Of a stretch of 25,541 nucleotides of DNA, positions 879 to 22,861 are shown in pieces; position 1 is the stretch's first letter; each line of letters opens with the position of its first letter. Source of the DNA: a virus (lineage: Duplodnaviria > Caudoviricetes). The notes beneath the pieces are model-generated. The model was not told the origin of the DNA. It did no database searches and was given only the letters and a program-made list of their open reading frames with translations. The stretch lies in IMG/VR virus record IMGVR_UViG_3300020594_000016, positions 1 through 25,541 of that record. One strand, 5' to 3'. The position numbers were made by a program, and so were the translations under genes.

Positions 879-1160
879 TCAGTTGTTGCCAATGCCAGCC
901 GTGGCTGGCCGAGGTGCCTCTGCCCAAGCCTTGATCGCGAGCTTGTCAGCGTTGCACTGCTCAAGCGCGGTGTCGTAGTCGAACAGTCGAGAGGCCGCAT
1001 CTCTCCAGGACTCGATGCCATCGAGGCCGGGCGATGGAGTAAGCAGGTAAAGAAGCGGAGACGGCTTCAGAAACCTTTCTTGTGGCACAAGCTCAACTTG
1101 GGGTGTGCTGCACGCCGCCAAACAGGCCGGCAGGCACAGGCTGATCCAAACACGCGTCAT
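879..1160 (-). CDS. Outer-membrane spanin (Rz1-like lipoprotein)
   Basis: From ATG 1160: MTRVWISLCLPACLAAC has a lipobox, followed by a Pro-rich segment and ALEQCNADKLAI. Overlaps the 3' end of the i-spanin in another frame. Confidence 0.85.
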   Translation of the reverse strand: MTRVWISLCLPACLAACSTPQVELVPQERFLKPSPLLYLLTPSPGLDGIESWRDAASRLFDYDTALEQCNADKLAIKAWAEAPRPATAGIGNN

Positions 1161-1431
1161 CCCTGATCTCCATAAGCGTTTTCTTCCTTTTGTCCAATTC
1201 CCCGGCTGCCCGCTTGTACTGGGCGTCACGCAAGCTGAGCGCGTTCCCCGTGATCTTCAGCTCGCGCTCCAGGCCCTCCGCATGCAGCTTGGTGGCCTGC
1301 TGTTGAAACTGTGCAGCAGCGAGCTGCTGGGCGAGATCCTGGGCCTTCTTTTCACTCCGTGATGACTGCCAGAAGGCGAGCACGAGCAAGGCCAGCAGGC
1401 ACACGGAGATGCCAGCCAGAATCTTCGTCAT
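1093..1431 (-). CDS. Inner-membrane spanin (Rz-like)
   Basis: N-terminal TM helix, long coiled-coil, C-terminal CLDQPVP. Confidence 0.85.
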   Translation of the reverse strand: MTKILAGISVCLLALLVLAFWQSSRSEKKAQDLAQQLAAAQFQQQATKLHAEGLERELKITGNALSLRDAQYKRAAGELDKRKKTLMEIRDDACLDQPVPAGLFGGVQHTPS

Positions 1432-1667
1432 GAGCCGGCTCCAGGCTCAGCCTTCTTGTGCCATTTGTCGTCGAGCGTCGCAAAGCCAAGATAGCCAGTG
1501 ACAATGCCGCCGAACGCGAAGATCAGGGTGTTGAGCACGGACGTTGATTTGTCCATGTTTTCTGGCGCCAGGAACGAGCCCAGCGTGATTCCGATCAGCG
1601 AGAAGAGGCTTATCCAGGCCATCAATCGGCGCGTCTTCCAGCGCTGCCTATTTACATCCTTGTTCAT
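1428..1667 (-). CDS. Holin (two TM helices)
   Basis: 79 aa with a basic N-terminus, two hydrophobic segments and a charged tail. ATGA overlap with the i-spanin. Confidence 0.75.
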   Translation of the reverse strand: MNKDVNRQRWKTRRLMAWISLFSLIGITLGSFLAPENMDKSTSVLNTLIFAFGGIVTGYLGFATLDDKWHKKAEPGAGS

Positions 1668-1668
1668 G

Positions 1669-2880
1669 TCAAACTTCCTTTTTGATTAAGTATCCCTCCA
1701 AATTCAACATTGGACTGTACTTGTCTACGTTGAACCAGCCTCTTATATCTCCAAGTATTCTGCCAACGCCTCTGTGGTAAAAAACCACATCGCATGTGTC
1801 GTAATACTCTTTTAGCTCCTGGAATGAGTCTATAAAAGGCTTTGCGTTATATCTTACTCCTGTCTTGTAATCGCTTCCATAATTAGTTTCAAAGTCATTT
1901 CCAAATACGGTATTGAATGACCGAGATAGATATCTTTTTTCGTACGTCCCGTCTCTCTTCCAAACGAAATACTCTTCAACGTTATTGTTGTTCATGCCTG
2001 CCCCGAGCAAGAAAGATTCAGGGAAAAGTGTTCTTGAATAACGCGCGCTTGACTCCATGACTCGATCACTACTCCAGGAGTACCTTTTTCCGGATGCGGA
2101 CATCTCTACAATAGATGATTGATAATCGTAAATCTTAGAAGACCCACGGTATTTATAGCCGTAATTTATCGGTGCAAAAGCATAGAAATTTCCGTCCAGC
2201 GGATCTCTTTCGATGACATTGCCCTTTTTGTCATATTTGATTTTGTCGTCGATAACGCCAGAATTCTGCTTGAACCAGTTGATGGGAATAATGTGCTGAT
2301 AGAAAACCTTGGCAATAACATCCCGCACTCGCGGCTCTTGAGCAAAGCCAATCAGATCAGGTGCATTAGAGAATTTAAAGTCTAAGACTACGTTGTCACC
2401 CGGCTCAAAGCTGTAGAAAGACGAATCACCAAGGTATTTAATTGGAACATTTGTCCAGATTTGTTTGTTGAACGGAAAGATCTTAACTCTAGCGGTCTCC
2501 CCAAAATTGCCAGATCCATACAGTTGGACGTTGGCGCGTCTCCGGTCTTCGGACATGCTCTCGATTATGCCGAACCAGTATTTTGGCTTAGAAACCTGGA
2601 CGTGTCCGAGCAGAAGTTGATTTCGTAACCAGTTCCACTTTTCCAATGACCGAGGGCTCGCGACAATCTCCCCGTGTCCCAGGTAGACGCCATTAGTGAT
2701 GACGTACGCATTCTGGTTCGGATCGCTTGCGTGAGTGAGAACGGAGCAGAAGTCGCCGACATCAAACACATCTTTTGTCGAAAGGCACCAGCATTGAACA
2801 GTCACAAGTGTGCCCATGGATTGCACTTGAACTACGTACCGGTATTTACCAGTCTTTTGCAATATTTTACCGAGCGGCAC
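1669..2880 (-). CDS. Tail tip protein with AT-rich C-terminal domain (possible receptor-binding protein)
   Basis: Last gene of the tail module. Likely start is GTG 2880 after GAGG, overlapping the upstream gene (ORF track gives 2925). Aromatic-rich C-terminal half. Confidence 0.55.
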   Translation of the reverse strand: MPLGKILQKTGKYRYVVQVQSMGTLVTVQCWCLSTKDVFDVGDFCSVLTHASDPNQNAYVITNGVYLGHGEIVASPRSLEKWNWLRNQLLLGHVQVSKPKYWFGIIESMSEDRRRANVQLYGSGNFGETARVKIFPFNKQIWTNVPIKYLGDSSFYSFEPGDNVVLDFKFSNAPDLIGFAQEPRVRDVIAKVFYQHIIPINWFKQNSGVIDDKIKYDKKGNVIERDPLDGNFYAFAPINYGYKYRGSSKIYDYQSSIVEMSASGKRYSWSSDRVMESSARYSRTLFPESFLLGAGMNNNNVEEYFVWKRDGTYEKRYLSRSFNTVFGNDFETNYGSDYKTGVRYNAKPFIDSFQELKEYYDTCDVVFYHRGVGRILGDIRGWFNVDKYSPMLNLEGYLIKKEV

Positions 2881-3502
2881 ATCGAACCTCGCAATAATTT
2901 GCCGTAGATTCAACGTACATAACAATCTCTGTAGCTACGTAATCGATACCGTCGTAGCTGATTATGTCTCCAGGCTGTAGCTCAGAGTTGGGAGTGATAC
3001 GGATGCTCACCTCGTCATCGTAAAAGGCAACGTAGATGATGTTCGACAGCGAAAGCGATTTGGGAGAGGTCGGCTTCGGGTACTCCAAACTCCCGGCAAT
3101 CGTCATTGTTGAATTGTTAGGCGATAGGGAAGGTGTGACATCCGTGATCTTTGACCGACAAATCTCGCTTTCGACCTTTGACCCGTCCGTGTACTCAACA
3201 ACACGACGCACGTACATCATCTGGCCGACCAGCACTTTTCCTTTATAAGCGGTTCCTCCCGGCACGTAAGCAGTGAGGTACGAAACTCCGTCATTACGCA
3301 ACCGAGACTGAAAGCTCTGCATTGGAACGCGAAGCGTGCCGGCAGGAGTAACAACGTCGAACACATACGCAACTTTCAGCTCGCGAGCAGCATCGACGAT
3401 AGTCTTGCGGTTCGAGAGTGCGTAGACGACCTCAAGCTCACCGAATACAAGGGTTCTTGCGTTGCTGTAGCTGACTACCAGGGAGCATGCGATATCAGGC
3501 AT
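2867..3502 (-). CDS. Minor tail protein (hub-like, putative)
   Basis: Lies in the tail-tip cluster, beta-rich, TAATG coupling to the upstream gene. Confidence 0.55.
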   Translation of the reverse strand: MPDIACSLVVSYSNARTLVFGELEVVYALSNRKTIVDAARELKVAYVFDVVTPAGTLRVPMQSFQSRLRNDGVSYLTAYVPGGTAYKGKVLVGQMMYVRRVVEYTDGSKVESEICRSKITDVTPSLSPNNSTMTIAGSLEYPKPTSPKSLSLSNIIYVAFYDDEVSIRITPNSELQPGDIISYDGIDYVATEIVMYVESTANYCEVRCAAR

Positions 3503-4209: not shown

Positions 4210-4549
4210 ACTGCTCCTCCACGTCGAGGTAGAGGGAACAGGTAGTGGCGCCTTCAGCAAACCGGTCTACAGAGCACAGGAATAGGCCGTGGATCGATGC
4301 GATCAGGAGCTTTGGGTACAGCTGCACAAGCCGGCGCACAGCTTCCGAAAGGAGCTTGGAGGCGCGGAAAGTCAGGCTGAAGCTGCGATCTTGGATGCTG
4401 CTGCCACGGTCTTCGGTGACGTATCCACCATCAAGAGTCTGCACCCTGGAGCGGCGGCGAGAGGTCTCACCGAAGCTTGATGTCTCGTAGTCAACGTCTA
4501 GGATCACGACTCCATTTTGGTCAAAGTTGAGTGAATGTATTGCAAGCAT
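4202..4549 (-). CDS. Distal tail (Dit-like) protein
   Basis: First small gene after the tape measure, with RRxSRxxTLDGG...DxG motif. ATG 4549 has the correctly spaced AAGGA; 4555 is the alternative start. Confidence 0.6.
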   Translation of the reverse strand: MLAIHSLNFDQNGVVILDVDYETSSFGETSRRRSRVQTLDGGYVTEDRGSSIQDRSFSLTFRASKLLSEAVRRLVQLYPKLLIASIHGLFLCSVDRFAEGATTCSLYLDVEEQYV

Positions 4550-4587
4550 ATTCATCCTTGAATATTAATATGCAGTAAAGTATATAA

Positions 4588-7782: not shown

Positions 7783-7795
7783 AGAACTTCCTTGT

Positions 7796-7972
7796 TCATA
7801 TCTCACTCCGCGCTTCATTGCGCTCAGCGTAGAAAAGTGCCCACAACTGCCTCTCAAACTCCGTGAGGAAGCCTTCTGGAATCAGGTCTGGGCGTGCTTC
7901 GAAGAGAAACTTCTGCTTCTCATTGCATAAATAGAGGTCTGACTTTATTGAGTCGTAGACCTCAAGGGCTTT
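7796..7972 (-). CDS. -1 frameshift extension of the tail assembly chaperone (gpGT-like C-terminus)
   Basis: The -1 frame after the slippery site is open for 58 codons (KALEVYDSIKSDLYLCNEKQKFLFEARPDLIPEGFLTEFERQLWALFYAERNEARSEI*) and ends 13 nt before the TMP start. Confidence 0.85.
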   Translation of the reverse strand, partial: KALEVYDSIKSDLYLCNEKQKFLFEARPDLIPEGFLTEFERQLWALFYAERNEARSEI

Positions 7973-7977
7973 TTTTT
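7934..7977 (-). other. Programmed -1 ribosomal frameshift signal
   Basis: A AAA AAG heptamer (7975-7969) in the correct frame, followed 5 nt later by the stem-loop GAGGTCT-AC-GACT-CAATAA-AGTC-AGACCTC. Confidence 0.85.
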
Positions 7978-8400
7978 GGCAACAACCGGCCCGTCTTGGC
8001 TCAGCTCGAAGATCTTGTCGCTAAGGGTCTGGAACTCGGCGGGGTAGAACTGCGAGAGACGGACGGCGACTTGGCGGTCGATCTTGGGCTCAACAGAGCA
8101 CATGACCAGTTGTTCGATGCTGCGCCGAGTTGACTCGTGAACCCCATCAACGTCGCCGACGATCTCTTTGATCAGCTTCTGCTTGTCTTCCTCATTGCCG
8201 GCGACGGCTGCAATGGCGGTGTCCAGCAGCTTGTCGTTCTGCTTGGTCTCACGCATGCGGCACAGCTCAGTGTGAGTCATGCCGCGCACGACCCACTTGG
8301 CCTCAGCTTCGCCGAAAAACTGCTGAAGTTTGGGCACATCTACAGTCGCTGTAGCGTGCTCCATTTTGGCTTTGTTGAAGGCGCTGATGTCGAAGCCCAT
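7945..8400 (-). CDS. Tail assembly chaperone (gpG-like)
   Basis: Between tail tube and tape measure; ends at the slippery KKK codons. Confidence 0.85.
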   Translation of the reverse strand: MGFDISAFNKAKMEHATATVDVPKLQQFFGEAEAKWVVRGMTHTELCRMRETKQNDKLLDTAIAAVAGNEEDKQKLIKEIVGDVDGVHESTRRSIEQLVMCSVEPKIDRQVAVRLSQFYPAEFQTLSDKIFELSQDGPVVAKKKPLRSTTQ

Positions 8401-8403: not shown

Positions 8404-9366
8404 TTAGGCCTCGACGTTGATGCCGGATTTCTCCGGGGAGATCGTGAAGTCAGCTTCGACTTTGCTGCCAGCAGCGAATTTCCTGGTACAGCCAAGGATT
8501 CCCTGCTCAAGAATGTGGTTGAGCTGGTCGCGATCAGGGAAGAAGCGGAACCACACTTTCTGGCCGCGCAGCTTGACCAGGGGGTCGCTGATGCCGTCAG
8601 ACAGATAAGCTTTGAAGCTGGCCCCATTCAGCGTCTTGGAGGTGCTGCCTACGGTGCCTCCATAGACTTGAGTTGACGACAGGCTGTACGACTCTTCCGA
8701 AGGCTGGAAATCCGAAGCCAGGTCGATGTCCGCGAAGATCGGCTCTGCATACGAAGCGAATACCTTCTTCGGCTTGTTGCCGACGTGAATCAGTGGCAGA
8801 TCTGCGTTGAAGACAACGGCGCCTGATGCTGAGTCAACCGAGTAAACCGGGCTGGTAGCGATCTCGCGGTGCAGGCCGGGAACAGAGTACAGCTCGGAAG
8901 CTTTCACTGCTGCGGCAGCGGTGGTGTTCAGGCGCACTTGGCCGACTTCGATAGACTCGACCGGAATCAGTGCAGGGCCACCAGCTGCACCGCGTGTCTC
9001 GCTGAAGGATGCGCCGGAAGCACCAGGTACTGCTTCGTAGACGCCAGTCGCATTCACGGTGACAGAGATGATGATGTTCGTGCCGCCAGATGCACGGGTG
9101 ACGCTCAGCTCGGCAGCGGGAACGGTGACTTTGGCGCCGGCGAGGTTGGCGGTAGCAGCAGTGACCTTCACTTTGTTCGAGCCGGTGCCAACGCTCAGCT
9201 CGGCGCCGGTAAGCAGGCCGTTGGGCATTACTACGGGAGCAAAGCCGGTGACGCCGGAGAACTGGTCGGCTTGGCTGGTGAACGTCTTGTTGTCGCCGGA
9301 GTTGTCTAGCTCGGACATCGGGAACGCGTTCTGTCCAGACTCGTATTGCAGCAGTTGATTATCCAT
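8404..9366 (-). CDS. Major tail (tube) protein
   Basis: 320 aa, Ala/Gly/Ser/Thr-rich, immediately upstream of the chaperone and TMP. Confidence 0.75.
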   Translation of the reverse strand: MDNQLLQYESGQNAFPMSELDNSGDNKTFTSQADQFSGVTGFAPVVMPNGLLTGAELSVGTGSNKVKVTAATANLAGAKVTVPAAELSVTRASGGTNIIISVTVNATGVYEAVPGASGASFSETRGAAGGPALIPVESIEVGQVRLNTTAAAAVKASELYSVPGLHREIATSPVYSVDSASGAVVFNADLPLIHVGNKPKKVFASYAEPIFADIDLASDFQPSEESYSLSSTQVYGGTVGSTSKTLNGASFKAYLSDGISDPLVKLRGQKVWFRFFPDRDQLNHILEQGILGCTRKFAAGSKVEADFTISPEKSGINVEA

Positions 9367-9526
9367 AATCGAATTACTTCCTAGTTTTGATCAAAACAAA
9401 TGTTGTGTGTTAATTATAAATACGTTACCTATATTTGTATATATTAAAGCGTAAAGTAAATGTCGTGTGGCAATGAGCCACTCGTGCCGGTATTATCTGG
9501 AGCCAGACCATTGGCACGGAGCGCTT

Positions 9527-10429
9527 ATGAAAAAGGCAGTTCTGGTTCTTGTAGTTTCTTCCATTGCGATTACCGCTTGCTCTACAACATCAAGAGAAGA
9601 ACGGCAAAAGAAACTTTATGATCAGGTTTCGGAAGCGTTCAAGGTTAATGTGATTAATGACTGCTCTTATTCTGGAAAAGGAGTGGCTATCACCGATTTC
9701 AGACCCTTCTTCTCGGACGACTCAGTTAAAAAGTCAGAATATGAAACGCGCGATCAGTATTTGGCACGGATGAAAGCCAAAGTTCCAGAGTACATGACGT
9801 TCAGAGTTCCTGCTAAATATGGGCAATATAATGCTGAAACAGGGATGCTTCATGTTGTAGTAACAAGATATGCAGAGCCTCAGGGGTTGCAGGTTGAATC
9901 GTATGAAGAGCAATTGCGTAAAGAGAAGCAAGAAGCTTCTGGATATCACGTATTTTACGCTGCTAGAAACCTCTATGCAAAAACTAGGAGTTACCCGAGA
10001 GTAGCACTCAAAAGCGAGATCCCGTACTCGACACAAAAGATTGGACAGACAGCCTACGGATACGAGAAAGAGTATACCGCAGCACTGTATGATGAATATT
10101 TCGCTTCGCTTGGCATGCTTGACTCGAAAAATGGCGTAAATGAAGTAAACTATTATGCAGATATTCCAATGACGGGATACGAAGCTCAAAACGCAAAAGA
10201 CAGCCTCGAAATTGAGTTTACAATTAAGGCTGTCGCTCCATACCTGCTGTCTTATGATAAAGAGCCGATTGCTGCGACAATCTCTGAGCCTTATGCGATT
10301 ACTCGATTTCAGCACGTCTTTGTTGGTGATCTGTGCTCAAGCTCATTTGTTGATTCAAAATCCGGGAAAACTTACAACGTTCCACTTCAGCTGAATCTGC
10401 CAAAGCTTGACTATCCTTATTTCAGATAG
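9527..10429 (+). CDS. Moron lipoprotein of unknown function
   Basis: From ATG 9527: MKKAVLVLVVSSIAITAC is a signal peptide with a lipobox. Opposite strand and more AT-rich than its neighbours. Confidence 0.8.
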   Translation: MKKAVLVLVVSSIAITACSTTSREERQKKLYDQVSEAFKVNVINDCSYSGKGVAITDFRPFFSDDSVKKSEYETRDQYLARMKAKVPEYMTFRVPAKYGQYNAETGMLHVVVTRYAEPQGLQVESYEEQLRKEKQEASGYHVFYAARNLYAKTRSYPRVALKSEIPYSTQKIGQTAYGYEKEYTAALYDEYFASLGMLDSKNGVNEVNYYADIPMTGYEAQNAKDSLEIEFTIKAVAPYLLSYDKEPIAATISEPYAITRFQHVFVGDLCSSSFVDSKSGKTYNVPLQLNLPKLDYPYFR

Positions 10430-10910: not shown

Positions 10911-11491
10911 TCAAATCTGAGTCCTTTCAGTCGTGAGAGTAGGGTTGGAATTTCTTTCTGAGCTGTTTCTTCGAAGCCCAAGCGAGCAGGCATCTTCACT
11001 TCTTTCACGAGCCAGAACATCGCCTTGCCGCCCTCAATCACCGCAAACCTGGCTTTCCCTGCGTTCTTGAGCTTCACGATGTAGCCGCCGCTGGCAAACA
11101 CGTCGCGGGCAGAACGGCGCATCACGCCAGCCGGTGTTTGATTCGCTTGCGAAGGAATGTTGAGGTACGGGCCACCTGGTAGCATCCGGTATGCGCGCTT
11201 GGCCTTGATCGTCCCTCCAGCCTCGTGAATCGGCGCGTATGGAGACGTGGTGTACGTCGATGAGCCGATGTTGCCGAGCGATGTACCAAACGTGCTGAAC
11301 CGCCAGGATCTTCCGAGTTCTCCAGTTCTGGAGTGCAACGGGCCATTCATCGAACGCTGGGCCATCTGCTTTTGTACAGACATGGCCGTCTCAGCAAAGA
11401 TCTCTTTTGCACTCGATGCTATGTGTTCTGGTAGTTCATTGATAAAGCGTAGGGCTTCATTGAGCCCAATCATCTTAATAGTTTCTGCCAT
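10907..11491 (-). CDS. HK97 gp10-like neck/tail completion protein
   Basis: RTGELGRS and PYAPIHEAGG motifs, C-terminal MPAR. ATG 11491. Confidence 0.75.
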   Translation of the reverse strand: MAETIKMIGLNEALRFINELPEHIASSAKEIFAETAMSVQKQMAQRSMNGPLHSRTGELGRSWRFSTFGTSLGNIGSSTYTTSPYAPIHEAGGTIKAKRAYRMLPGGPYLNIPSQANQTPAGVMRRSARDVFASGGYIVKLKNAGKARFAVIEGGKAMFWLVKEVKMPARLGFEETAQKEIPTLLSRLKGLRFE

Positions 11492-11616
11492 ACGCAATTC
11501 CTTCGTACAGCAATGTTACGTTATTTGTTGATTAAAATACATAAATATATAGTTATGCTTGTTAAAATGCGAAAATACCATGTTATAATAAAATTATAAT
11601 TAAGGAGATTGATGGT

Positions 11617-11976
11617 ATGTGGAATTTCAAATCAAAACAGGAGGCATACAGCTCTGTTGAGGAGTTTTTAGAGAAGAACAAGAGCGAGAGGTTTGTTGTC
11701 GGCTTCTACGAGACGAATGACAAGGGTGGCGGGGCGTTTGTTGACAGAAAAAGGATATCTGGACGGATCTATAGCCCAAGCAACATGCGTTCACCCGTCT
11801 GGATCTTCTGCGTGCGCGAGGACAACGGCAGGGCGACGTTGAGAATCGAAAGCACTAGGGCACAGGTTCGGTCAGAGGTTGAGGCTATGAAAGGCATTCT
11901 GCGCGCTCAGGGCATGCTGGTAGAGCAGGATGTGGTCTGCAACTCTAGAGTCGAGATCAACAGCGTTGCTGCCTGA
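11617..11976 (+). CDS. Hypothetical moron protein (119 aa)
   Basis: Own AT-rich promoter and AAGGAG RBS; opposite strand. Confidence 0.75.
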   Translation: MWNFKSKQEAYSSVEEFLEKNKSERFVVGFYETNDKGGGAFVDRKRISGRIYSPSNMRSPVWIFCVREDNGRATLRIESTRAQVRSEVEAMKGILRAQGMLVEQDVVCNSRVEINSVAA

Positions 11977-12061: not shown

Positions 12062-12451
12062 CTAGCAAAGCTCGAAATGAACGAGATCAAGGAAGCGCTC
12101 GTCCTTCGATTTGCCGTTACCGTTCCAGTCTCCACCCCATCGCACCGCAATGCCCATGCTGTCGGCCACTGCCTGCACGTACCCAGCAAGACTCGCAAAA
12201 GCCAGCGAGTCGTTCCAATCTACTGGATATGGGGCGACATCGACGGCTTGTGACGGCAGAGTGTTGTGCTTCCCCTCCGGCCACCTCAGCTTCGACTTCC
12301 CCTCGCGAAACGCTTTGTCTTGTGCCTCCTGGCCTCGATGACCCTCTAGCACAACGAAGTCCTCATACTTGATGACCTCGTTCAACACCGCCTGAAGCTT
12401 GGGGTGACACGTTGCCAGCCGATCCAGGCTGGTCTTCGAAAATGCAGGCAT
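12062..12451 (-). CDS. Endolysin, peptidase M15 family (L-Ala-D-Glu peptidase-like)
   Basis: From ATG 12451 (AAGGAG RBS): EGxR, Zn ligands in KHNxxxxxAVD and DLVHFEL, and RWGGDW. Confidence 0.9.
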   Translation of the reverse strand: MPAFSKTSLDRLATCHPKLQAVLNEVIKYEDFVVLEGHRGQEAQDKAFREGKSKLRWPEGKHNTLPSQAVDVAPYPVDWNDSLAFASLAGYVQAVADSMGIAVRWGGDWNGNGKSKDERFLDLVHFELC

Positions 12452-12452
12452 A

Positions 12453-12806
12453 TCAATCTCCTTTTGGCCTGTTAATGGGCGCCTTTCCTGGCACCTTCGT
12501 TGTTTCTTGCAGCTCACTGAGAGCGATCCTTCCAACCAGCCCGAACAGGGCGAGCAGGGCAGAGATGATCAGCGCTCCCGTGACTTTCTCGACGATCCGC
12601 TTCCTACGCTCACGTCGTTCCCGCATCTCCTCCGCCATCTCCCTGATCAACGGGGCATACGGCAGAAGCTCATCCAGGGCCTTGTGGTGCGCGGCATGCT
12701 TCTCTTCCCAGTCGGCCTGCCGGCTACCAAGTACCTCTCCCAGCTCGCGTGCCAGCAGCTTGTAATCGATGCCGCCATAGGCTCTTTCAGGTGTATCGAA
12801 CATCAT
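12453..12806 (-). CDS. Single-TM membrane protein, possible second holin or lysis regulator
   Basis: Start overlaps the connector stop (GTGATGATG). Charged helical N-terminus, then TM GALIISALLALFGLVG. Directly upstream of the endolysin. Confidence 0.55.
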   Translation of the reverse strand: MMFDTPERAYGGIDYKLLARELGEVLGSRQADWEEKHAAHHKALDELLPYAPLIREMAEEMRERRERRKRIVEKVTGALIISALLALFGLVGRIALSELQETTKVPGKAPINRPKGD

Positions 12807-13324: not shown

Positions 13325-13342
13325 TTGTCTTCATCCTTGAAG

Positions 13343-13366
13343 AAAACCCCGGCGTGGCCGGGGCTT
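13343..13366 (-). terminator. Rho-independent terminator after the major capsid gene
   Basis: Minus strand GCCCCGGC-CAC-GCCGGGGTTTTCTT. Confidence 0.8.
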
Positions 13367-13372
13367 CTGGCC

Positions 13373-14482
13373 TTACTTCACTTTCACCGGGACGAAGGCT
13401 TCTGGCTGGGTCACGCCGGCAGCGTGGCGAGCCTTCAACAGGAAGCCAGCGGTGTCGGAAGTGTCGTAGTTACCGCCAGTCAGACGCTTCACGGCCATGC
13501 CTTCACGGTCGTAGATCTCGTAGTGCTTCAGATCGCCGATAACGATTGGGAATTTGCCAGTGGCAATGTCATCCAGGTCTTCAGCAGTGACAATGCGGAT
13601 GCCGTCAAAGTAGCTAACTTCACCTTGAGTGGTCAGCAGCTTGCGGCCATCTGCGTCACGGAGAGAATCCAGGTACGCCTCGGTCTGGCTGTTGCACAGC
13701 AATACAGCACGACGGCGGTACTGCTTGCGCAGCTTATAGAACGCCTTCTTGATCAGCGCGATGGCGTCGGCATGTGTGGCACCCAGCACCCCAACTTCGG
13801 CAGAAGTGACGGCGTTGGCTTTGGTTTCGGCAGAAACAATGCCAAGGGGCTCATTGATTCCGGTGCCGACCGAGAAGGCGCGACCTTCTTCTTCTGCCAA
13901 GGACTCGGAGAAGAGATCGATCAGCTTCGACACTAGGTCATATGCGCTGTCACTCAGGCTGTCGTTTGGAATGACAACTAGGGATTTTGCGGTATGAACG
14001 TCCAGGGTTTGAGCGCCGGCAGTCAGTTCCTCTTCGGTCGGAGTGACATTGCCATAGCCGGTTTTCGGGCGGCTCAGAGACGGCAGGAACACGCGGTTGC
14101 GACCCGTACGGCCAACTGATGCCAGGGGGCGGATTTCGTTGAGAATGTAGGCTTTCGACTTGATCTCTTTCGACATGTCGGCAGGAAGGAACACCGCGCC
14201 TTCTTCGTCTGTAGCACCGCTCAGGGTACGCAGCTCGCCGATATCGCCAACACGAGCGTACTGAATGAATGCAGTGGCACGCTTCTCCAGCTCCACGTCA
14301 TTCGCAGCAGGCAGCCCGCCCGGACGGTTCAATTTGACGGTCACGTCATCCAGAGCAGCGCGCAGCTCGACAATCTCTTGCTTCAGGGCAGCGGTCTGTT
14401 CGTTGCTTTCCTGGCCGCGAGCACGCAGCTCGGCTTCAGCGTTTTTGATCGATGCCAGCAGTTCTATCAGTTGTTCTTCCAT
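13373..14482 (-). CDS. Major capsid protein, HK97 fold
   Basis: N-terminal coiled-coil delta domain; GxxxLP, GTGINEPLGI, LRDADGR, IGDL..Y.I.DR and PEAF motifs. Confidence 0.93.
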   Translation of the reverse strand: MEEQLIELLASIKNAEAELRARGQESNEQTAALKQEIVELRAALDDVTVKLNRPGGLPAANDVELEKRATAFIQYARVGDIGELRTLSGATDEEGAVFLPADMSKEIKSKAYILNEIRPLASVGRTGRNRVFLPSLSRPKTGYGNVTPTEEELTAGAQTLDVHTAKSLVVIPNDSLSDSAYDLVSKLIDLFSESLAEEEGRAFSVGTGINEPLGIVSAETKANAVTSAEVGVLGATHADAIALIKKAFYKLRKQYRRRAVLLCNSQTEAYLDSLRDADGRKLLTTQGEVSYFDGIRIVTAEDLDDIATGKFPIVIGDLKHYEIYDREGMAVKRLTGGNYDTSDTAGFLLKARHAAGVTQPEAFVPVKVK

Positions 14483-14502
14483 GATTTAAATATCTCGTAA
14501 AT

Positions 14503-15522
14503 TTAGTGGTTAAAGGTTTTTAGTGATTCACTGAGGCTCTTCATGAGCGCACGTGTCTCAAGCGAAAGCTCGGGGGCTTTCTTCGTCTTAACCGGAAGTG
14601 CGGGCGAGATATCTACTGCTGCGGCTTTGGTTAGTTCTTTGGCAACAAGCTGCCTTACTTCATCGCAAGCGATGAGTTTGGGATCGACTTCGGCAGGAAC
14701 TTGGCCACGACGGAGTGATCGGATTTCTTCAATCGTCAACCTGGACGATTGGGTAAATTCTTCTACAGATTGCTCGCCAAGCATGGCTTGGACGGCCTTG
14801 GACAGATCGTTGGCATCAGGGGCGCCACGGAGTCCTGGATCGACGTTGTACAAATCGTTCAGCCAGCCAACGTACGCCGACTTGAATTCCTCAATGGCCA
14901 GCTCGGTAGCTGATACAACTTCACCTGGTTTCTTCATGCTCCAGGAGATGTCATCGATGGTCTGCGATAGCGCGCTACGGAGGCGGCTGCCGCGTGAGTA
15001 CAGCTCGTTCTTGTCGATTGTTTCAGAGAAGCTGGTGGCCCTGGATTCGTCTTCCTGAGAGCGCACCTGATCAATCGTGGCTGTCTCATTGGCTTCGAAA
15101 TTGACAGGAGAAATCTCTTGTAGAGCCACTTCCGTGTACTCTTTTATCCCGCTGGTGTTGAAGCCGGACTTGATGCCTCGGAAGCCGAAAGACATGGTGT
15201 CGATAGCACCATCGAGCATGAGCTGGTGAGCGTTGCGGCCAGCTTCAGTCGAGAGTGACAGCTGGGCTTCGAAGTAGACTCCCTTCTCGTCCTCTCGGAT
15301 CTCGGTCACAACACCGATTGGCATAGCTCCGAAGTCGTGATTCCAGAGCAGCTTGATGCGAGATCCGCGCTCAGAAAGCGTTTTCTTGAACGATCCGCGC
15401 TTGAAAGTGGTGTTGTAAGTATCGATAGAACCCCAGGTGACGATGTAGCCGGAAAACATTCCAGGCTTCTCATCAGCACGAGTTTCTAACGGTGTAAAAC
15501 TGCGAACTTCCATGTTCTTCAT
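14503..15522 (-). CDS. HK97-family prohead protease with long C-terminal extension
   Basis: FSGY, LLWNHD...PIG, MSFGF and LQEISPV.F.AN..A motifs in the first ~155 aa. Confidence 0.92.
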   Translation of the reverse strand: MKNMEVRSFTPLETRADEKPGMFSGYIVTWGSIDTYNTTFKRGSFKKTLSERGSRIKLLWNHDFGAMPIGVVTEIREDEKGVYFEAQLSLSTEAGRNAHQLMLDGAIDTMSFGFRGIKSGFNTSGIKEYTEVALQEISPVNFEANETATIDQVRSQEDESRATSFSETIDKNELYSRGSRLRSALSQTIDDISWSMKKPGEVVSATELAIEEFKSAYVGWLNDLYNVDPGLRGAPDANDLSKAVQAMLGEQSVEEFTQSSRLTIEEIRSLRRGQVPAEVDPKLIACDEVRQLVAKELTKAAAVDISPALPVKTKKAPELSLETRALMKSLSESLKTFNH

Positions 15523-15543
15523 ATATCAATCCTTGATGCCGTA

Positions 15544-15572
15544 ATTATATTTGATAGATATTATGCGGTAAA
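15544..15572 (-). promoter_or_regulatory. Sigma70-like promoter for protease-capsid
   Basis: TTTACC-N17-TATAAT. Confidence 0.65.
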
Positions 15573-15576: not shown

Positions 15577-17562
15577 TTATTCACTAAAAGATAACGAGCA
15601 GCGGCAATTAACTCGATCTTTGGTAGTTGTCGAAGAGTCCAGTGGCCACCTGGGCGTCCCGCCGTAGTGCGAGCTAAACCGGCCATCGATGGGGCGCACC
15701 TCGCCAGCCCTGGCAGCGTGGCCATCACGAGCACCACCAGAGGTGTTCCAGATCTTTTTCCCGGCGCCGACCTCTTCAGCTGAAGCAATCTGGCCTACTG
15801 AGCTGACTGCCCCGGTGAGGGTTCTGGCTACACGAAGGGCGCGATCTGGACCGAAGAAGCCGCCAGAAGTTAGGCGATCCTTGAGCTGCTGAACGGTCTC
15901 GTTTGCTGCCCTAGAATCAGCAATCAGGGCAGTAAGGATCTCGACTGAGCTGGCATTCAGGAAGCCCAGCTCCACTTCAATCACATGCTCGGCAGTGAGA
16001 AGTGAGGCGATGCGCAGTGCGACGTTGCTGTCATCGCGAAACTCAACTGGAGCAGCAGAGCGCTTTTTGGCAACAACCACGGCTTTCCCAGCATCAACAG
16101 CAGCCTCTATAGCCAGCTGGCGAATGCCCTTGATGTGTCGCTCGCTGATCGAATGCAGTTCATCGTCCAGGCCGTCCAGGTCGTCGCCATCGTCGATCAG
16201 GCCAAACACCAGGTTGCGCTGCTCATCGAGCAGGGCTTCGAACGCCGGCTTCATGTGCTTCTGAGCCATTTCCTCCCTACGATCGATCTCCTTGTCGATG
16301 TTCCGCAGCTCTGTTGGCATCAACGACCAGTTGGTCATGCCGCGCTTTTCGAGGGCAGGGGCGGAGCGGTCTTCAGCTGCCGAAGCTGCCTGGGCATTGC
16401 TGCGGCCACCAAAGGGCTTTTCCCAGTCCGGATATTCTGTGAGCCCTAACTCAAGTCGGTCGTTAATGACTTTGACGGGGACTCCAAGCTTGAAGAACTT
16501 ACCTGCACGATCAAGTTTCGCATCTTCGCTTTCTCTCAAGGCGTCAATTTGTGAATAGTCGGCTTTTATATAGAAGCCATCTCCCAGCTGATCTTTCAAC
16601 GACCTGTTGAATGCATCAACAATCAAATTGATTAATGGGATAACAGTATTCATCCAGAAGATTCTTTTTGCTTCTGAGATGTTGTTGTATGAACTGGCAT
16701 CTGTAGAAACAAGCTGAATGGGCACGCCGAAGGAGGCAAGGATTACATCCCTGTTGTTCTTCAGGCCCTGGCTGAAATCCATGTCGGTTTGGCTGAACCC
16801 AAGCTTATGGAATACCGTCTTCGCGGCGAGCACGAGCGGGGTTCCAGCTTTCTTTGCGCCGCCAAAGAATTTAGCAATTGATTTTGATACTGTTGCACGC
16901 TGCACATCTGTTTGAACATCTTCAAGGCCGATGGCGAAAGATGGCTTGGCCCCATTTTTCAGCAAGGCGTTATTCCATTCCTGCATCAGATTATCGACAT
17001 CAACAGCTTTTGCGGCAGCCATCAGTGGTGATATGCCACGAACTGGGTCAGCGGGGTCGGCAATACATACTCTAATTACAGAGTCTAAAGTGTAGTCAGG
17101 AGAGAAGGATTTAGGTTGATTGCTCTTAAGTTGTACTTTATAGCCAGATATTAGATTTGCAGAGTCTTCACTGACGACTGGGCATATTCTGTCAGGACTA
17201 ATAGGCCACAACTCTTTTACGATTCCTCGTACGCCGCTTGCTTTCTTGAAGTAAGCCTCACCGGAGAGCTGAAGCCATATCGCTATGAGGCGCATAATGT
17301 CAGCACGTGACATGTCGGGATGGGGGTGATCAAGAAGCTTATGAACCGGGTGGGACGTAACTATTTTGCTTTCTTTGTCATAGACAACAAGAGGCACACT
17401 GGAGACGGCATCAGCTACTAGCTTCGAAGCAATGAAAACCCATGCGCTAGATTTCAGCCCTTCCTTTGTAGCCTTCTCAAGATTCCAATCTTTCCATTCT
17501 GGGTTTGTCCAAGTGCTTATGTGGCAAGATGCCTGAGCCATGTTTCTCGTTTCGAAGTCCAT
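15577..17562 (-). CDS. Portal protein fused to a C-terminal MuF (SPP1 gp7-like) minor head domain
   Basis: HK97-type portal motifs (HPVHKLL..P, LSGEAY, GISPL, NGAKP, FGVP, SYNN) in ~400 aa, then the MuF signature RAxxxART...KxW....R..H...VNCRC in the same frame. Confidence 0.88.
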   Translation of the reverse strand: MDFETRNMAQASCHISTWTNPEWKDWNLEKATKEGLKSSAWVFIASKLVADAVSSVPLVVYDKESKIVTSHPVHKLLDHPHPDMSRADIMRLIAIWLQLSGEAYFKKASGVRGIVKELWPISPDRICPVVSEDSANLISGYKVQLKSNQPKSFSPDYTLDSVIRVCIADPADPVRGISPLMAAAKAVDVDNLMQEWNNALLKNGAKPSFAIGLEDVQTDVQRATVSKSIAKFFGGAKKAGTPLVLAAKTVFHKLGFSQTDMDFSQGLKNNRDVILASFGVPIQLVSTDASSYNNISEAKRIFWMNTVIPLINLIVDAFNRSLKDQLGDGFYIKADYSQIDALRESEDAKLDRAGKFFKLGVPVKVINDRLELGLTEYPDWEKPFGGRSNAQAASAAEDRSAPALEKRGMTNWSLMPTELRNIDKEIDRREEMAQKHMKPAFEALLDEQRNLVFGLIDDGDDLDGLDDELHSISERHIKGIRQLAIEAAVDAGKAVVVAKKRSAAPVEFRDDSNVALRIASLLTAEHVIEVELGFLNASSVEILTALIADSRAANETVQQLKDRLTSGGFFGPDRALRVARTLTGAVSSVGQIASAEEVGAGKKIWNTSGGARDGHAARAGEVRPIDGRFSSHYGGTPRWPLDSSTTTKDRVNCRCSLSFSE

Positions 17563-17625
17563 TTCGTTACCCGTTGATTTCCTCCTTTTTGCTTCCTGCG
17601 AATTGGAGAAATATATAATGCGTTA

Positions 17626-18065: not shown

Positions 18066-18079
18066 GTGATCCTCCCTGA

Positions 18080-19774
18080 TCACTGGACTTTTATATATGA
18101 CTTGGCACCGGATGCGGCGGGAATATTCGGCAGCTTCCACTTCTCTGTTTCGTTGAAAGCAACAGAAAAGAGATTGATGTCGCGGTTGTTCGAGCCGTGA
18201 GTGACAAGCAGTGTGCCGTTGGAACGCGGGTGGAACTGAACCGCCTTCAGGTTTGCTGAGTAGTCTTGCTGAGTCTGCAAGTTGAGGGCGTCGAAGCTAG
18301 TGAAATTGCTGGTCTTAAACACGTCGCCGGCATCGTTAGCAAGCAACACAGACTGCCCGACTATCCGTGCTGATGTGAAAGCCTGGGGCAGCGTGATCAT
18401 TGACGTAGTGACGAGCTGCTCAACGTCGAAGAGCACAGCCTTCACGAGGTCAGTGAGGTACAGCTTGCCATCGATGACATAAACGCGGTCAACAGCACTG
18501 ACGCCCACGTAGCGTGACTGCGTAGCTTCGAGGTCTGCGGCAGCGAAGCTGTCAGCGATGTGCAGGTTCGCGCCGGCCAGGACGGCGATTTTGTTGCCAA
18601 TGCGCCGGATGCAGCTTGGTCGATAGCCGACGTATGAGCCCCATGATGCTGATGAGGTTACGAGGCTCCAGGTCACGGCATCAGGTGACGAGTACACAGA
18701 AGCGCCGACCAGAGCATAGAAGCTAGCCGTTGTGGCGTCGTAGTAGAGCAGGGCAGCCTTCGAGTCATCTGTGATCGTTGCCAGTTGCACTGTAGAGAAG
18801 CTCACAAGGTCCGTGCTGACCGCGATCTCGACGATGAGGTTGCCGTAGTCGCCGAACCCTTCGCTCATGAATACGTGCTTGGAGCCGTCAGTCGCATAAC
18901 CAGAGATGGCTTCACCGCTTGTTTGGTCGCCTGCAACGCAGGGGGCAGATAATGGATCGCTGAATGGGGCAATCACACGCTTCGCGAAAGCGGACAGATC
19001 GCTGGCAAGCTCGTTGACTGTTAGCGAGCGCGGCGAAAGCAGGCTGATGACACCGGCAACATCGATTGCGAGCGTATTCAGCTGCGCCTTCCAGTCGCCT
19101 TCAGCAGCAGTATTCGACCCCATCGTGTTCGTGTACCAAACCGAGCCTGTCGGCACCTTTTCCAGGTACTCGCTGCCTGCGAGATCTGGATACCAGGACA
19201 TGTCGAACAAGCTTCCATCGCAAGCGAGCCAGGGGAAATCTTGGGCTTTAACGAACTGAGAGATCTGGCCTGCAACGAAGCCCGAACCCGAGCCGCTGGA
19301 ACCCCCCGTGACGCTGCCGCAGTCGATAGAGCTGCCATCAGAGAGGAACAGGAAGAGGTTGCCCCATGGCTGAACAGCGGCGCCGACTACAGAGATGCCG
19401 TTGCTGCCGTTGATGCCGTTCTCGCCCCTGATAGTGCCAAGAGGTACAACGCTTCCGTCGCTCATCGAGATGTTCAGCTGACCATCTGTGAGCGTGATAT
19501 TTGCTATCCCACGACCGTCTTTCCCGTCACGGCCATCGCGCCCAGGTAGCCCCTGTATACCCGCAGGGCCTTCGGCTCCTGCCGGAAGGTAGCCAGTGGA
19601 TAACTGCCTGCCGTCCGTGAGCTTGAATATAAGGTTCTTGGCTTCATTGACGAAGATGTCATCGACACCCACGCCGGCAGTGCCGGTATCGCCTTTCTTG
19701 CCAGCGATGACGAGCACATTGCCCACCGAAACCGACACTTCTTGGGTATTTTCAATCGTTGATACGCTATCCAT
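18080..19774 (-). CDS. Collagen-repeat fibre protein with tail-collar motif and probable beta-propeller
   Basis: Gly-X-Y runs, WLACDGS....YPDL collar motif, Asp-box-like repeats, C-terminal LPN...YIK. Confidence 0.8.
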   Translation of the reverse strand: MDSVSTIENTQEVSVSVGNVLVIAGKKGDTGTAGVGVDDIFVNEAKNLIFKLTDGRQLSTGYLPAGAEGPAGIQGLPGRDGRDGKDGRGIANITLTDGQLNISMSDGSVVPLGTIRGENGINGSNGISVVGAAVQPWGNLFLFLSDGSSIDCGSVTGGSSGSGSGFVAGQISQFVKAQDFPWLACDGSLFDMSWYPDLAGSEYLEKVPTGSVWYTNTMGSNTAAEGDWKAQLNTLAIDVAGVISLLSPRSLTVNELASDLSAFAKRVIAPFSDPLSAPCVAGDQTSGEAISGYATDGSKHVFMSEGFGDYGNLIVEIAVSTDLVSFSTVQLATITDDSKAALLYYDATTASFYALVGASVYSSPDAVTWSLVTSSASWGSYVGYRPSCIRRIGNKIAVLAGANLHIADSFAAADLEATQSRYVGVSAVDRVYVIDGKLYLTDLVKAVLFDVEQLVTTSMITLPQAFTSARIVGQSVLLANDAGDVFKTSNFTSFDALNLQTQQDYSANLKAVQFHPRSNGTLLVTHGSNNRDINLFSVAFNETEKWKLPNIPAASGAKSYIKVQ

Positions 19775-19870
19775 GCGCACTCACCACCTGGTCCTTTTCG
19801 CCCGTCCTGGGCGGTTGAATTTGTCTTCAAGAAAACGCTTTATTTGCCTTCAAAACCCGCTGTGTTGCGA

Positions 19871-20395: not shown

Positions 20396-20411
20396 GTCGA
20401 TGATGGTGCTG

Positions 20412-20744
20412 CTAGCATTTAGTGGCTTCTTGCTCAACAATCTTATAGTTTGTGTGAAGATCACGAGCAATAAAGAATAACTTTTGGGCAGTTGTCTTAC
20501 TGTAATCTACTTTGCCAAGTTCGCGCAATGCAATCAAATCAATTCCAGTTCTCTTTAATATTTCATAGTGAGCGGCTCGAAAAACACCCTGCAATGATCG
20601 AAATTCCCTACGATTTTCTAATGTCGTGTTCTGTTTCCTTGTATGTATTAATCTTCCTACCAATCGATCAATGCCATATTTGTTGACATGATCCTGAACT
20701 ATGTCTTTAACAGTGCCTGCTTCTTCTCTTGTAGTTATTTCCAT
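20412..20744 (-). CDS. Hypothetical AT-rich moron protein (110 aa)
   Basis: Own promoter repeat, AGGA RBS and downstream hairpin. Confidence 0.75.
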   Translation of the reverse strand: MEITTREEAGTVKDIVQDHVNKYGIDRLVGRLIHTRKQNTTLENRREFRSLQGVFRAAHYEILKRTGIDLIALRELGKVDYSKTTAQKLFFIARDLHTNYKIVEQEATKC

Positions 20745-20769
20745 GATTACTTCCTGTTATGTTTGTTTG

Positions 20770-20824
20770 TATTTATAGTATAACGCACTTAATTGAATTT
20801 ATAACATGCAAATTGAAAATAATT
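20770..20824 (-). repeat. 55-bp promoter repeat, copy 1
   Basis: 48/55 identical, ungapped, to 25297-25351. Contains TATACT -10 on the minus strand. Confidence 0.9.
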
Positions 20825-20900
20825 AGAAAATAAATCTACAACTAAAGAATGTCGCTAGATTCATAGAAGAAAGTATTTTGTTTGTCAGCCAAATGGCAGG

Positions 20901-22439
20901 TTAAAAGTCGTCGTCATCATAGTCATCGTATGAGTCCGGCATCTCAATTACGATGTCTTTCTCGAACGTTATGGCTTTACGAGACCACTTCAGGAACTGC
21001 GATAGAGCGTCCACCTGGTCGTCATGCTTGACGAGCGGGAAATTGATCATCTCTTGCTCGAAGTCGTACATCCAAGTAGCCGTCTCCGGCAGCAACACAA
21101 GCCCAGCTTCAAGCAAAGGAGCCTGGGACGACATGCGTATGACCTTGCCGGCCTCGGGCTCAATCTTGATCACCGGCAGGCCTTCCTCGCGCATGTCCTG
21201 GATCAGCGACTGCCCAGATGCTTTGTCTTCAACGAGCACGGCAACGGGCCTGTGAAGCTCGCAGAGAGCGAATACAGTGCGTTTGAGGTTCGGGTATGTC
21301 ACCCGCTTACGCCACACATCGAGGATGTACCAGCGCTTCCGGTATTTGCCCAGGACGATGGCTACTGATGGGTCGTTCTGCTGAGCCTCTTTGTATGCGG
21401 TATCGCAGCTGATAACGATCTGATCAAAATCCACCGGGGCTTCGCGGTAGCGCTGGAACCAGCCAAGCTCGATCATTCCCCCGGTTTCTGGAGTAGGGCG
21501 CTGCTGGTACTGGCCAGAGAACATATACGGAGCTGCGTCTCGCATCCGCACCAGTTCTTCAACTGTGTGCTTGAACGGCCACAAAGCTACCAGCTCGCCA
21601 TCTTCGTTCTCGCGGAGCGCTGGTAGCTCAAGGTGGGTCCATTTCTCGCCAGTTGCACCGCCGAGCAAAAAACCGGTTGTGTCTTCTTCATGCAGACGCT
21701 GCATGACCACAATGATTGGGGTTTTGCGGCTGTTTACGCGGCTGCCAATCGTGTTGACCATCCGCCCATTGATCGTCTTCCTGAGCGCAGCAGACTCTGC
21801 ATCGGCGGGTTTGATGGGATCATCGACAATGATCGCGCCATAGAACTTGCCGTCGTCGGCAGCCTCATTGACCCACTCCAGTTCGATGCCAAGGGCCTTC
21901 AGCTCTTCAAGGTGCGATTTATCTTCGTCACCCTCGGCAGTCTCAGCAGAAGTAGAACCAGCACCAAATCCGGTTACTGCACCGCCAGAAGAGGTCGCAT
22001 ACACACCACCACCGGCAGTCGTGTACCACTTCTTCTTCGACTTAGCGTCGTCCTTAAGCCTTACGTCCGGCCACAGCGCCTGGAACTCTTCAGAGAGGAT
22101 GATCTCCTTGACTTTGGAGCTGTTATCCAGGGCCAGTTCGTCGGAATAGCTCAAGTGAATGAATTTAGCGCGGGGATTGAGCGCAATGGACCATGCCATA
22201 AACATGATCACGATCAGCTCGGTCTTGCCGTAGCGGGGCGGCATGTTGACGATGAGGCGCACGATTTCGGAGGTCGTGCAGGACATCAGGTAGCGAACAA
22301 TCTCGTGATGATGCTCAGCTACGACAAACTTCTTGCCTTCCCTCGTTTTGAAGAAGTATCGGACGAAGAAAAGGAAGTCTGTTTCGCAGCGGTGTTTCGT
22401 GATCGCCCTAGCGGCCTGGGCATGCAGTGCAGAAGACAC
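20901..22439 (-). CDS. terL: Terminase large subunit
   Basis: Walker A NMPPRYGKT, Walker B IIVDDP, MQRLH, YQQRP, and nuclease motifs SCDTA and HDDQVDA. Confidence 0.96.
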   Translation of the reverse strand: MSSALHAQAARAITKHRCETDFLFFVRYFFKTREGKKFVVAEHHHEIVRYLMSCTTSEIVRLIVNMPPRYGKTELIVIMFMAWSIALNPRAKFIHLSYSDELALDNSSKVKEIILSEEFQALWPDVRLKDDAKSKKKWYTTAGGGVYATSSGGAVTGFGAGSTSAETAEGDEDKSHLEELKALGIELEWVNEAADDGKFYGAIIVDDPIKPADAESAALRKTINGRMVNTIGSRVNSRKTPIIVVMQRLHEEDTTGFLLGGATGEKWTHLELPALRENEDGELVALWPFKHTVEELVRMRDAAPYMFSGQYQQRPTPETGGMIELGWFQRYREAPVDFDQIVISCDTAYKEAQQNDPSVAIVLGKYRKRWYILDVWRKRVTYPNLKRTVFALCELHRPVAVLVEDKASGQSLIQDMREEGLPVIKIEPEAGKVIRMSSQAPLLEAGLVLLPETATWMYDFEQEMINFPLVKHDDQVDALSQFLKWSRKAITFEKDIVIEMPDSYDDYDDDDF

Positions 22440-22814
22440 TTAATACTCTTTATCAAGTGCTCGACTGATCGCAGTGATTTGCTCTATTGTGAGAGTTACT
22501 GCACCTTCAGTCTTGATTGCTTCGCCATTCTCGCCAGTCAGCTCGGTTTTATTCGTCTCTTTCCAGCCAGCTTGAGTCTTCAGGTAGAAGAAGATCGAAG
22601 CCGGATGCCCAGCCATCACTTTCTTATAGAGCTGCCCAGCCGCCATTCCTATAGCAACGTTCTTTCCGTTGTCATAGTCCTCTTGGCAATGGCGCTGAAG
22701 GGTGCGCTTATTGAGTTTTAGAACAGAAGCGATTTGATCCCAGGTCAAGCCGTAGCCTGCTAACTCTCCGATCAAAGCGCGTTGTTCAGCAGTAATTTGA
22801 ACAGGTAGTGACAT
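22440..22814 (-). CDS. terS: Terminase small subunit
   Basis: HTH (GLTWDQIASVLKLNKRTL) and SIFFYLKTQAGWKE...ELTGENG. Abuts terL. ATG 22814 follows GAGG. Confidence 0.85.
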   Translation of the reverse strand: MSLPVQITAEQRALIGELAGYGLTWDQIASVLKLNKRTLQRHCQEDYDNGKNVAIGMAAGQLYKKVMAGHPASIFFYLKTQAGWKETNKTELTGENGEAIKTEGAVTLTIEQITAISRALDKEY

Positions 22815-22861
22815 AATTATCCTCGCCAATCCATGGCAAAGATAATTATATGGCTTATATG

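Follow-up and report, generated by a model that had tools for sequence, protein, structure and literature searches.

GGA-loop hairpins at late gene starts of a Pseudomonas prophage

IMG/VR record IMGVR_UViG_3300020594_000016 is a 25.5-kb contig (25,541 nucleotides; "the window" below means this whole stretch) that contains the minus-strand late module of a tailed prophage. The start regions of its virion genes carry short hairpins with a GGA triplet in the loop that match the binding sites of CsrA/RsmA-type proteins, and this cis feature is real, statistically strong, and conserved within the lineage. Judged from sequence, the most fitting reading is a CsrA/Rsm regulon that covers the assembly genes of the prophage—a type of regulon that is itself known—in which host Rsm proteins would probably bind the leaders of virion genes and block translation initiation.

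The module runs from terS and terL over tail fibre, fibre chaperone, portal, protease, HK97-type capsid, head-tail connector, endolysin, neck, tail terminator, tail tube, tape measure (TMP), and tail tip genes to a putative holin, two spanins, umuD, and the start of umuC. The labels Dit, tube, and holin are given by position: Dit has no match in Pfam or PHROG, and tube and holin matched only families of unknown function there. Because proteins with names from P. putida and from P. migulae occur in the nearest capsid clusters, and tube homologues are likewise named from these two species and from P. monteilii, the host genus is, by these matches, Pseudomonas. For comparison we used relatives ranked by capsid identity, i.e., L005 (98%), G001 (88%; its capsid is identical to a P. 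migulae protein), G002 (59%; host not known), and G003 (59%; a Marinobacter segnicrescens contig). All of these records are incomplete (CheckV 32, 28, and 75%; L005 is a 21-kb stretch); what is seen of G002 spans integrase to TMP, and the G001 sequence starts at a resolvase and continues well beyond umuDC. When capsid, tube, and terL were used to scan collections of viruses, genomes, and metagenomes, only these four, the window's own contig, and one 4-kb fragment that was left aside came up; among 151 genomes of the genus of genome G004 and 401 of its order, only G004 itself matched, and no close match was found among annotated phages and plasmids.

Enrichment of a strict motif

As the strict motif we took C-ANGGAN-G flanked by a Watson-Crick pair, its GGA lying at positions -25 to +3 of the gene start. 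This interval underlies our primary counts, while a wider one of -30 to +16 (8/23 starts) was chosen after the data had been seen. Six of the 23 late gene starts carry the strict motif, namely those of chaperone, capsid, connector, TMP, Dit, and o-spanin; the outer pair is U-A or A-U in 6/6, which fits the (A/U)CANGGANG(U/A)-type sequence, and the offsets range from -12 to +2, i.e., over the Shine-Dalgarno sequence (SD) or the start codon. Across 5,000 shuffles that held fixed every GGA or ANGGA word and everything from the start codon onward, only 0.39 +/- 0.61 such sites were obtained (p = 0.0002), and the excess persists for upstream sites only (4 versus a mean of 0.28, p = 0.0004), for ANGGAN hexaloops with at least three pairs (7 versus 1.12, p = 0.0002), and for any GGA loop with at least four pairs (12 versus 5.21, p = 0.0012).

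Two of the relatives behave alike. G001 has the strict motif at 7/23 orthologous starts (terS, chaperone, capsid, connector, endolysin, Dit, and o-spanin) against a shuffle mean of 0.36, and G002 at 5/14 starts (terL, fibre, protease, endolysin, and TMP) against 0.50 (both p = 0.0002); upstream-only sites number 5 versus 0.23 and 3 versus 0.31, respectively. Host genes rarely show it (3/331 in G230 and 2/196 in G004), and this also holds for their AT-richer, GGA-bearing leaders (1/61 and 1/33). When whole records were compared with a single gene caller, the window had strict sites at 5/30 genes, G001 at 6/44, and G002 at 4/33—all of them morphogenesis genes—versus 1/39 in G003, 1/49 in Marinobacter phage PS3, and 2/421 in seven Pseudomonas phages (D3, F116, D3112, phi297, PAJU2, F10, and UFV-P2). 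A preliminary description of the window had proposed enrichment as a check, and for the virion genes the outcome is favourable whether shuffles that preserve the SD, genes of the host, or other phages of Pseudomonas serve as background.

The motif also clusters at starts within the 22-kb late region, where the 667 nt that surround the 23 starts contain 6 of the 11 sense-strand strict sites, with a further two at +8 and +11, versus one site on the antisense strand. Rsm proteins bridge pairs of GGA sites at a preferred distance, and two ANGGA words 15 to 26 nt apart occur at 5/23 window genes compared with 2/331 and 2/196 host genes in a test that was defined post hoc; the best sites, those of connector and Dit, are single.

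Sites at the individual genes

Apart from terS, which is described further below, the sites at late gene starts are as follows:

19762-19780, minus strand: start-codon loop of the tail fibre gene, 6-bp stem and heptaloop; the G001 stem has only 2 bp, and in G002 the fibre AUG is covered by a strict site
18066-18083, minus strand: SD hairpin of the fibre chaperone gene, strict, 6 bp
17553-17566, minus strand: start-codon loop of the portal gene, 4 bp, with more GGA words in the leader; an AUG hairpin is also present in L005 and G001
15525-15537, minus strand: SD hairpin of the protease gene, weak (-0.1 kcal/mol); kept in L005, strict site in G002
15504-15517, minus strand: second site of the protease gene at +11, where it covers an alternative AUG; strict, 4 bp, retained in both L005 and G001
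14475-14484, minus strand: start-codon site of the capsid gene, strict, 2-bp stem, with the start codon as its loop; unchanged in L005 and G001
13343-13367, minus strand: terminator-like hairpin after the capsid gene, from folding, abutting the connector site; same layout in L005 and G001
13328-13343, minus strand: SD hairpin of the head-tail connector gene, strict, 5 bp; kept in L005 and G001
11490-11508, minus strand: hairpin over SD and AUG of the neck (gp10-like) gene, GGA imperfectly looped; form not conserved
10917-10930, minus strand: SD hairpin of the tail terminator gene, lying within the neck gene, hexaloop with A-U closure
9357-9385, minus strand: tail tube gene, weak SD site (9376-9385) and start-codon loop (9357-9370); weak in G001
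7784-7797, minus strand: SD hairpin of the tape measure gene, strict, 4 bp
4548-4565, minus strand: SD hairpin of the gene that follows TMP (by position, Dit), strict, 6 bp
1654-1685, minus strand: putative holin gene, weak SD hairpin (1669-1685) and strict motif at +8 (1654-1663)
1431-1449, minus strand: SD hairpin of the i-spanin gene, heptaloop, off the Rsm consensus; weaker and shifted in G001
1157-1166, minus strand: strict motif over the o-spanin AUG, inside the i-spanin gene; kept in G001, with overlapping coding as a constraint

The preliminary description had quoted twelve hairpin strings for virion and lysis genes, and all of them are present on the minus strand where it had placed them. 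Folded in isolation, ten form a hairpin, with energies of -8.2 (i-spanin), -6.5 (terS), -6.2 (chaperone), -4.1 (connector), -3.1 (Dit), -1.9 (neck), -1.7 (tail terminator), -1.6 (TMP), and -0.1 kcal/mol (protease and holin), while the o-spanin and tube strings do not. With 25-nt flanks, the quoted hairpin lies outside the minimum free energy fold for TMP, protease, holin, i-spanin, and o-spanin. The GGA is looped in a short hairpin at chaperone, connector, Dit, TMP (when folded alone), tail terminator, and terS; stems of 4 to 6 bp surround the AUG of portal, fibre, and tube, and only 2-bp stems are found at capsid, o-spanin, and the +8 site of holin. For o-spanin, the listed motif is indeed a strict one, yet it covers the AUG and not the SD. 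The capsid start, by contrast, had been described as free of such a site and carries a strict motif, and further additions to the earlier list are the start-codon loops of portal, fibre, and tube, protease +11, and holin +8. The capsid motif may be due to chance, with 2/14 and 1/11 host genes that start with ATG-GA sharing its C and G flanks.

Rsm sites or ordinary Shine-Dalgarno hairpins

Since ANGGA is itself the core of an SD, these hairpins could also be passive tuners, i.e., weak stems that display the SD or hide it in part and thereby set subunit stoichiometry without any protein. The weakness and differing strength of the stems would suit such a role, and the terS hairpin could in principle work independently of protein. 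However, three features of the sequences set the sites apart from plain SD hairpins. Hexaloops of the ANGGAN type with at least three pairs are closed by C-G in 18/24 cases across three phages versus 4/13 in host genes. Looping is limited to ANGGAN among SD words, with 14/36 upstream ANGGAN words looped in the three phages compared with 1/73 for seven other SD-like word patterns (which overlap one another). Finally, a looped GGA is conserved at positions where an SD role is impossible, such as the terS loop at -17/-18 (L005 and G001), G001 TMP at -28, and G002 terL at -19; the fibre and endolysin sites of G002 lie over the AUG. Together with the lack of the motif in the seven control phages, this makes passive tuning rather improbable.

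The (A/U)-type Rsm consensus and a validated Rsm site over a start codon are described for P. putida cfcR (PMC6849547), and a CANGGAYG hexaloop from in vitro selection (SELEX) is reported together with a crosslinking-immunoprecipitation (CLIP) motif and enrichment near start codons (bioRxiv 2020.08.24.265819). Loop position 2 varies freely in our sites, which the consensus permits; in the chaperone hairpin, for example, it is G in the window, A in L005, and U in G001 with the stem retained. A different reader—be it an RNA-binding protein or nuclease of phage or host that is unrelated to Rsm, or a dimer that binds the inverted repeats as DNA—would find some backing in the many small open reading frames (ORFs) without a family in the relatives and in the RNA ligase of G001. 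Yet a fixed loop with varying arms and tolerated G-U pairs is the opposite of a DNA operator, and the Rsm consensus is matched even in the closing pair and in the freedom of loop position 2, so that we consider such a reader highly improbable. The DNA-operator and generic SD-presentation readings rank low.

Conservation across relatives

MAFFT misaligned the three terS leaders, and stem pairs were therefore read from folds and from a GGA-anchored table. Its cells comprise 58 unchanged pairs, which come mostly from the near-identical L005, 5 one-sided changes, 5 both-sided changes, and 11 broken pairs, four of the latter being G001 terS, whose internal loop the table ignores. Both-sided changes occur in tail terminator, Dit, TMP, and terS. 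In the tail terminator site of G001, a G-C pair is replaced by C-G on both sides through two synonymous Leu codons while the outer pair is broken; for Dit, the same relative has one pair changed on both sides, one on one side, and one broken. The TMP site appears in G001 in a pentaloop form with a second strict site at -28, and in G002 as a strict site with two pairs changed on both sides. The SDs of the G002 capsid and tube genes form GGA-loop hairpins too, the tube one with 4 bp. Because the strict sites of G001 and G002 fall partly on different genes, and those of G002 have other stems, the motif as read from these sequences persists while its gene set turns over.

The retention of sites with changed stems in relatives speaks in favour of the preliminary description as far as virion genes are concerned. 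The joint virion and lysis regulon that it proposed is thus supported in part, and its lysis arm is weak: the only conserved lysis motifs are those of o-spanin and holin +8/+11, both constrained by coding; the holin motif is kept in G001 but also encodes conserved residues. Overall, head and tail genes have good evidence behind them, lysis genes little. Around the holin start of G001 (L009:9912-10029), where the SD hairpin of the window is not kept, six ANGGA words lie within ~110 nt.

The terS leader and putative promoters

For terS, the preliminary description had recognised a hairpin but not its extent. The actual structure has 18 bp, and the GGA in its loop is not the SD. Together with promoter-like sequences, the features are:

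22811-22851, minus strand: terS leader hairpin, 18 bp, SD and AUG buried, GGA in the apical loop and a second GGA in the SD arm
22845-22872, minus strand: sigma70-like promoter with its -10 box inside the 5' arm of the terS hairpin; 10/12 consensus match
15544-15572, minus strand: sigma70-like promoter just upstream of the protease hairpin; 10/12 consensus match only
9413-9441, minus strand: sigma70-like promoter that precedes the tube gene; window and G001 both have the -10 box at -46

The terS hairpin has a folding energy of -22.9 kcal/mol (z = -7.13; 0/200 shuffles as stable). In L005 and G001 its loop is a C-AAGGAY-G hexaloop on a stem with changed pairs, and a variant contig (runs X1 and X2, which look like one data set) has G-C in place of a G-U pair with GGA loop and stem kept. 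In the window the -10 box is at -30, in G001 at -31, and transcripts starting 6 to 8 nt past it are predicted to have a partly freed start region in three lineages: with such predicted transcript ends, the unpaired fraction at -12 to +3 would rise from 0.00 to ~0.4 in the window, from 0.02 to 0.43 in L005, and from 0.26 to 0.50 in G001. Upstream of terS, the 129-aa gene, tube, and Dit, the spacing of boxes resembling -10 elements agrees between window and G001. One soil RNA library contains contigs identical to much of the module including the terS leader; as contigs they reveal neither strand nor ends nor level, could be of DNA origin, and were not used as evidence.

Observations that weigh against an Rsm regulon

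Several points speak against reading these sites as Rsm operators. Most stems are weak in isolated folds, the protease SD hairpin is lost in G001, and the same relative lacks the SD (-11) hairpin of holin and the i-spanin and neck hairpins in the form seen in the window. Counting any GGA loop with four pairs, G001 does not exceed its shuffles (6 versus 5.04, p = 0.39), and G003 has the strict motif at 0/17 starts even though its host has csrA. At start codons, coding accounts for part of the site, and 4-bp stems are also formed at 3/14 and 1/11 host genes that begin with ATG-GA. The pair tally draws on three informative lineages only and comes without a formal covariation statistic, the host gene starts stem from our own simple gene caller, and promoter-like matches are not enriched across the region (18 versus 13.7 +/- 3.4 in shuffles).

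Which protein reads the sites

A CsrA-family protein encoded in an unseen part of the element could read the sites in a private late-gene circuit. Such genes are known from Pseudomonas phages (9/185; PMC7366521) and are present in F116 and phi297 among our controls, and the records of window and G001 lack the integrase/replication end. Still, a phage-encoded homologue of this kind, which the preliminary description had envisaged, was not found in the window or in the incomplete records of G001 to G003: PF02599 (CsrA) had no match in the latter three while the same search recovers csrA in 2/8 phage records (F116 and phi297) as well as in G004 and G230, and phmmer on 4,137 six-frame segments of window, L005 stretch, G001 to G003, and PS3 gave a best E-value of 1.5. 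What is visible of G002 extends from integrase to TMP, that of G001 far past umuDC, and the two control phages that do carry csrA have strict sites at only 1/63 and 0/54 genes. We therefore regard a private circuit as unlikely.

A GGA-rich small RNA (sRNA), which the preliminary description had proposed to look for, was not found either, with no 110-nt stretch holding at least four ANGGA words in window or L005 and no such Rfam match; ANGGA clusters in G001 and G002 are gene starts. As neither csrA nor a sponge RNA was found in these incomplete records, host Rsm appears to be the likeliest binder. G230, a stand-in Pseudomonas-type genome and not that of the actual host, encodes three Rsm proteins, RsmY, and MvaT paralogues; two other candidates for this purpose, G157 and G165, were dropped for lack of an RsmY match. 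No CI-like repressor was found among the selected ORFs (34 + 70).

Proposed mechanism

We propose that the start-region motifs are operators for host RsmA/RsmE-type proteins that would block ribosome loading. An Rsm dimer would clamp the weak C-ANGGAN-G hairpin—weak stems suit a fold that is stabilised by protein—and might sometimes bridge to a second GGA ~17 to 25 nt away, as at protease, portal, fibre, tube, and holin. In the lysogen, leaky transcripts from several internal sigma70-like promoters would be muted in this way. Repression could lift once replicated genomes yield enough late mRNA to titrate away the free Rsm or, alternatively, when GacA-driven host RsmX/Y/Z sequester Rsm, for instance in dense cultures. 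For terS there would be an additional lock, of the T4 gene e type, that needs no protein, with read-through transcripts burying SD and AUG and transcripts from the proximal promoter lacking the lower 5' arm.

CsrA also activates some mRNAs, and Rsm might likewise activate or stabilise the late mRNAs, or these might, in the lytic cycle, act mainly as a sponge for Rsm and so reprogram the host. Sites away from the SD (terS loop, protease +11, and holin +8) and the ~8 to 15 sites per genome copy in the late transcript set would be compatible with such roles. The best-conserved sites, though, lie over SD or AUG in the repression geometry of cfcR (PMC6849547), and loss of rsmA raised prophage expression in Serratia (PMC4046660), leaving activation or a sponge very unlikely.

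A bolder and more doubtful extension of repression by host Rsm is that the whole morphogenesis module is wired to host Gac/Rsm, with internal housekeeping-type promoters, an Rsm hold at translation, and release by population-state sRNAs or self-titration in place of a phage late activator. Beside this possibility stands the site-less G003, which has a sigma-factor-like gene in its late module between terL and the 129-aa gene (202 aa, L012:8358-8963; phrog_351, E = 6e-16), presumably FliA-like. No homologue was found in window, L005 stretch, G001, or G002, so that the site-bearing relatives are without it in the sequence seen; gene presence and site absence coincide in one case only.

Relation to known systems

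The sites resemble the operators of CsrA, RsmA, and RsmE on host mRNAs, of which hcnA is reportedly one, in their loop consensus (A/U)CANGGANG(U/A), C-G closure, and place over SD or start codon; unlike these, they lie on prophage virion genes over a 22-kb module and are predicted from sequence. Restraint of prophage genes by host Csr/Rsm has a precedent in Serratia sp. ATCC 39006, where an rsmA mutant showed 39/57 prophage genes upregulated and released particles (PMC4046660). The available part of that report describes effects on transcript levels and excision and names no sites on structural genes, whereas we predict direct operators. Phage-encoded CsrA homologues, found in 30/2,517 phage genomes and including RsmM of P. 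aeruginosa phages (PMC7366521), tie the Csr family to phage fitness as well, and knock-down of PTXU04 gp28 resulted in smaller plaques (PMC11879866); here, by contrast, the phage carries cis sites and the protein gene was not found in the available sequence. The leaders of T4 gene e, soc, 49, and I-TevI, in which long transcripts bury SD and AUG (PMC3014915), share this burial with terS, where a proximal promoter in the 5' arm would lift the block; the terS promoter differs in being sigma70-like and putative, and an Rsm-type loop caps the hairpin in L005 and G001. We found no report of Rsm operators across phage virion genes in a literature search that left most subscription papers and supplements (with possible CLIP target lists) outside.

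If correct, our reading would mean that a global post-transcriptional regulator of the host directly controls phage assembly genes and that prophage output is tied to Gac/Rsm signalling, i.e., to cell density and biofilm state. It would offer a mechanism for the restraint of prophages by RsmA that has been seen genetically and supply natural targets for studies of the reasons why phages carry csrA. With leaders this short, and with rsm and gac mutants at hand in the host genus, the idea would be cheap to test.

Other features of the window and its relatives

The portal gene is fused to a MuF-like head morphogenesis domain (15577-17562). Lysis genes are found in two places, with the endolysin and a 117-aa membrane-like ORF after the connector (12062-12806) and the putative holin and spanins 10 kb away behind the tail genes (879-1667). 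Near the 3' end of the gene before TMP, which is the usual site of the tail-chaperone frameshift, lies a run of eight A (GCCAAAAAAAAG; 7945-7990). Two moron-like ORFs sit on the opposite strand within the tail module, 9527-10429 (plus strand, with a lipoprotein-like signal) and 11617-11976 (plus strand); neither has a match in Pfam, PHROG, or PADLOC, and PADLOC found nothing among 10 moron-like ORFs. A Phd/YefM-like antitoxin is encoded at 23581-23838, below the Pfam cut-off and with no toxin recognised next to it. The spanins are followed by umuD, a 72-aa ORF, and the start of umuC, and a box with the sequence CTGT-N8-ACAG upstream of umuD (800-815) resembles a LexA box.

Upstream of terS, G001 encodes a SieB-like exclusion gene and a T4 Rnl1-like RNA ligase (L008:610-2515). 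Past umuDC it carries a MobA/VirD2-type relaxase, a small ORF upstream, and an MvaT-family silencer (L009:16094-19824). By its gene content this element may be a phage-mobilisable hybrid, and its MvaT could act on the AT-rich late spacers.

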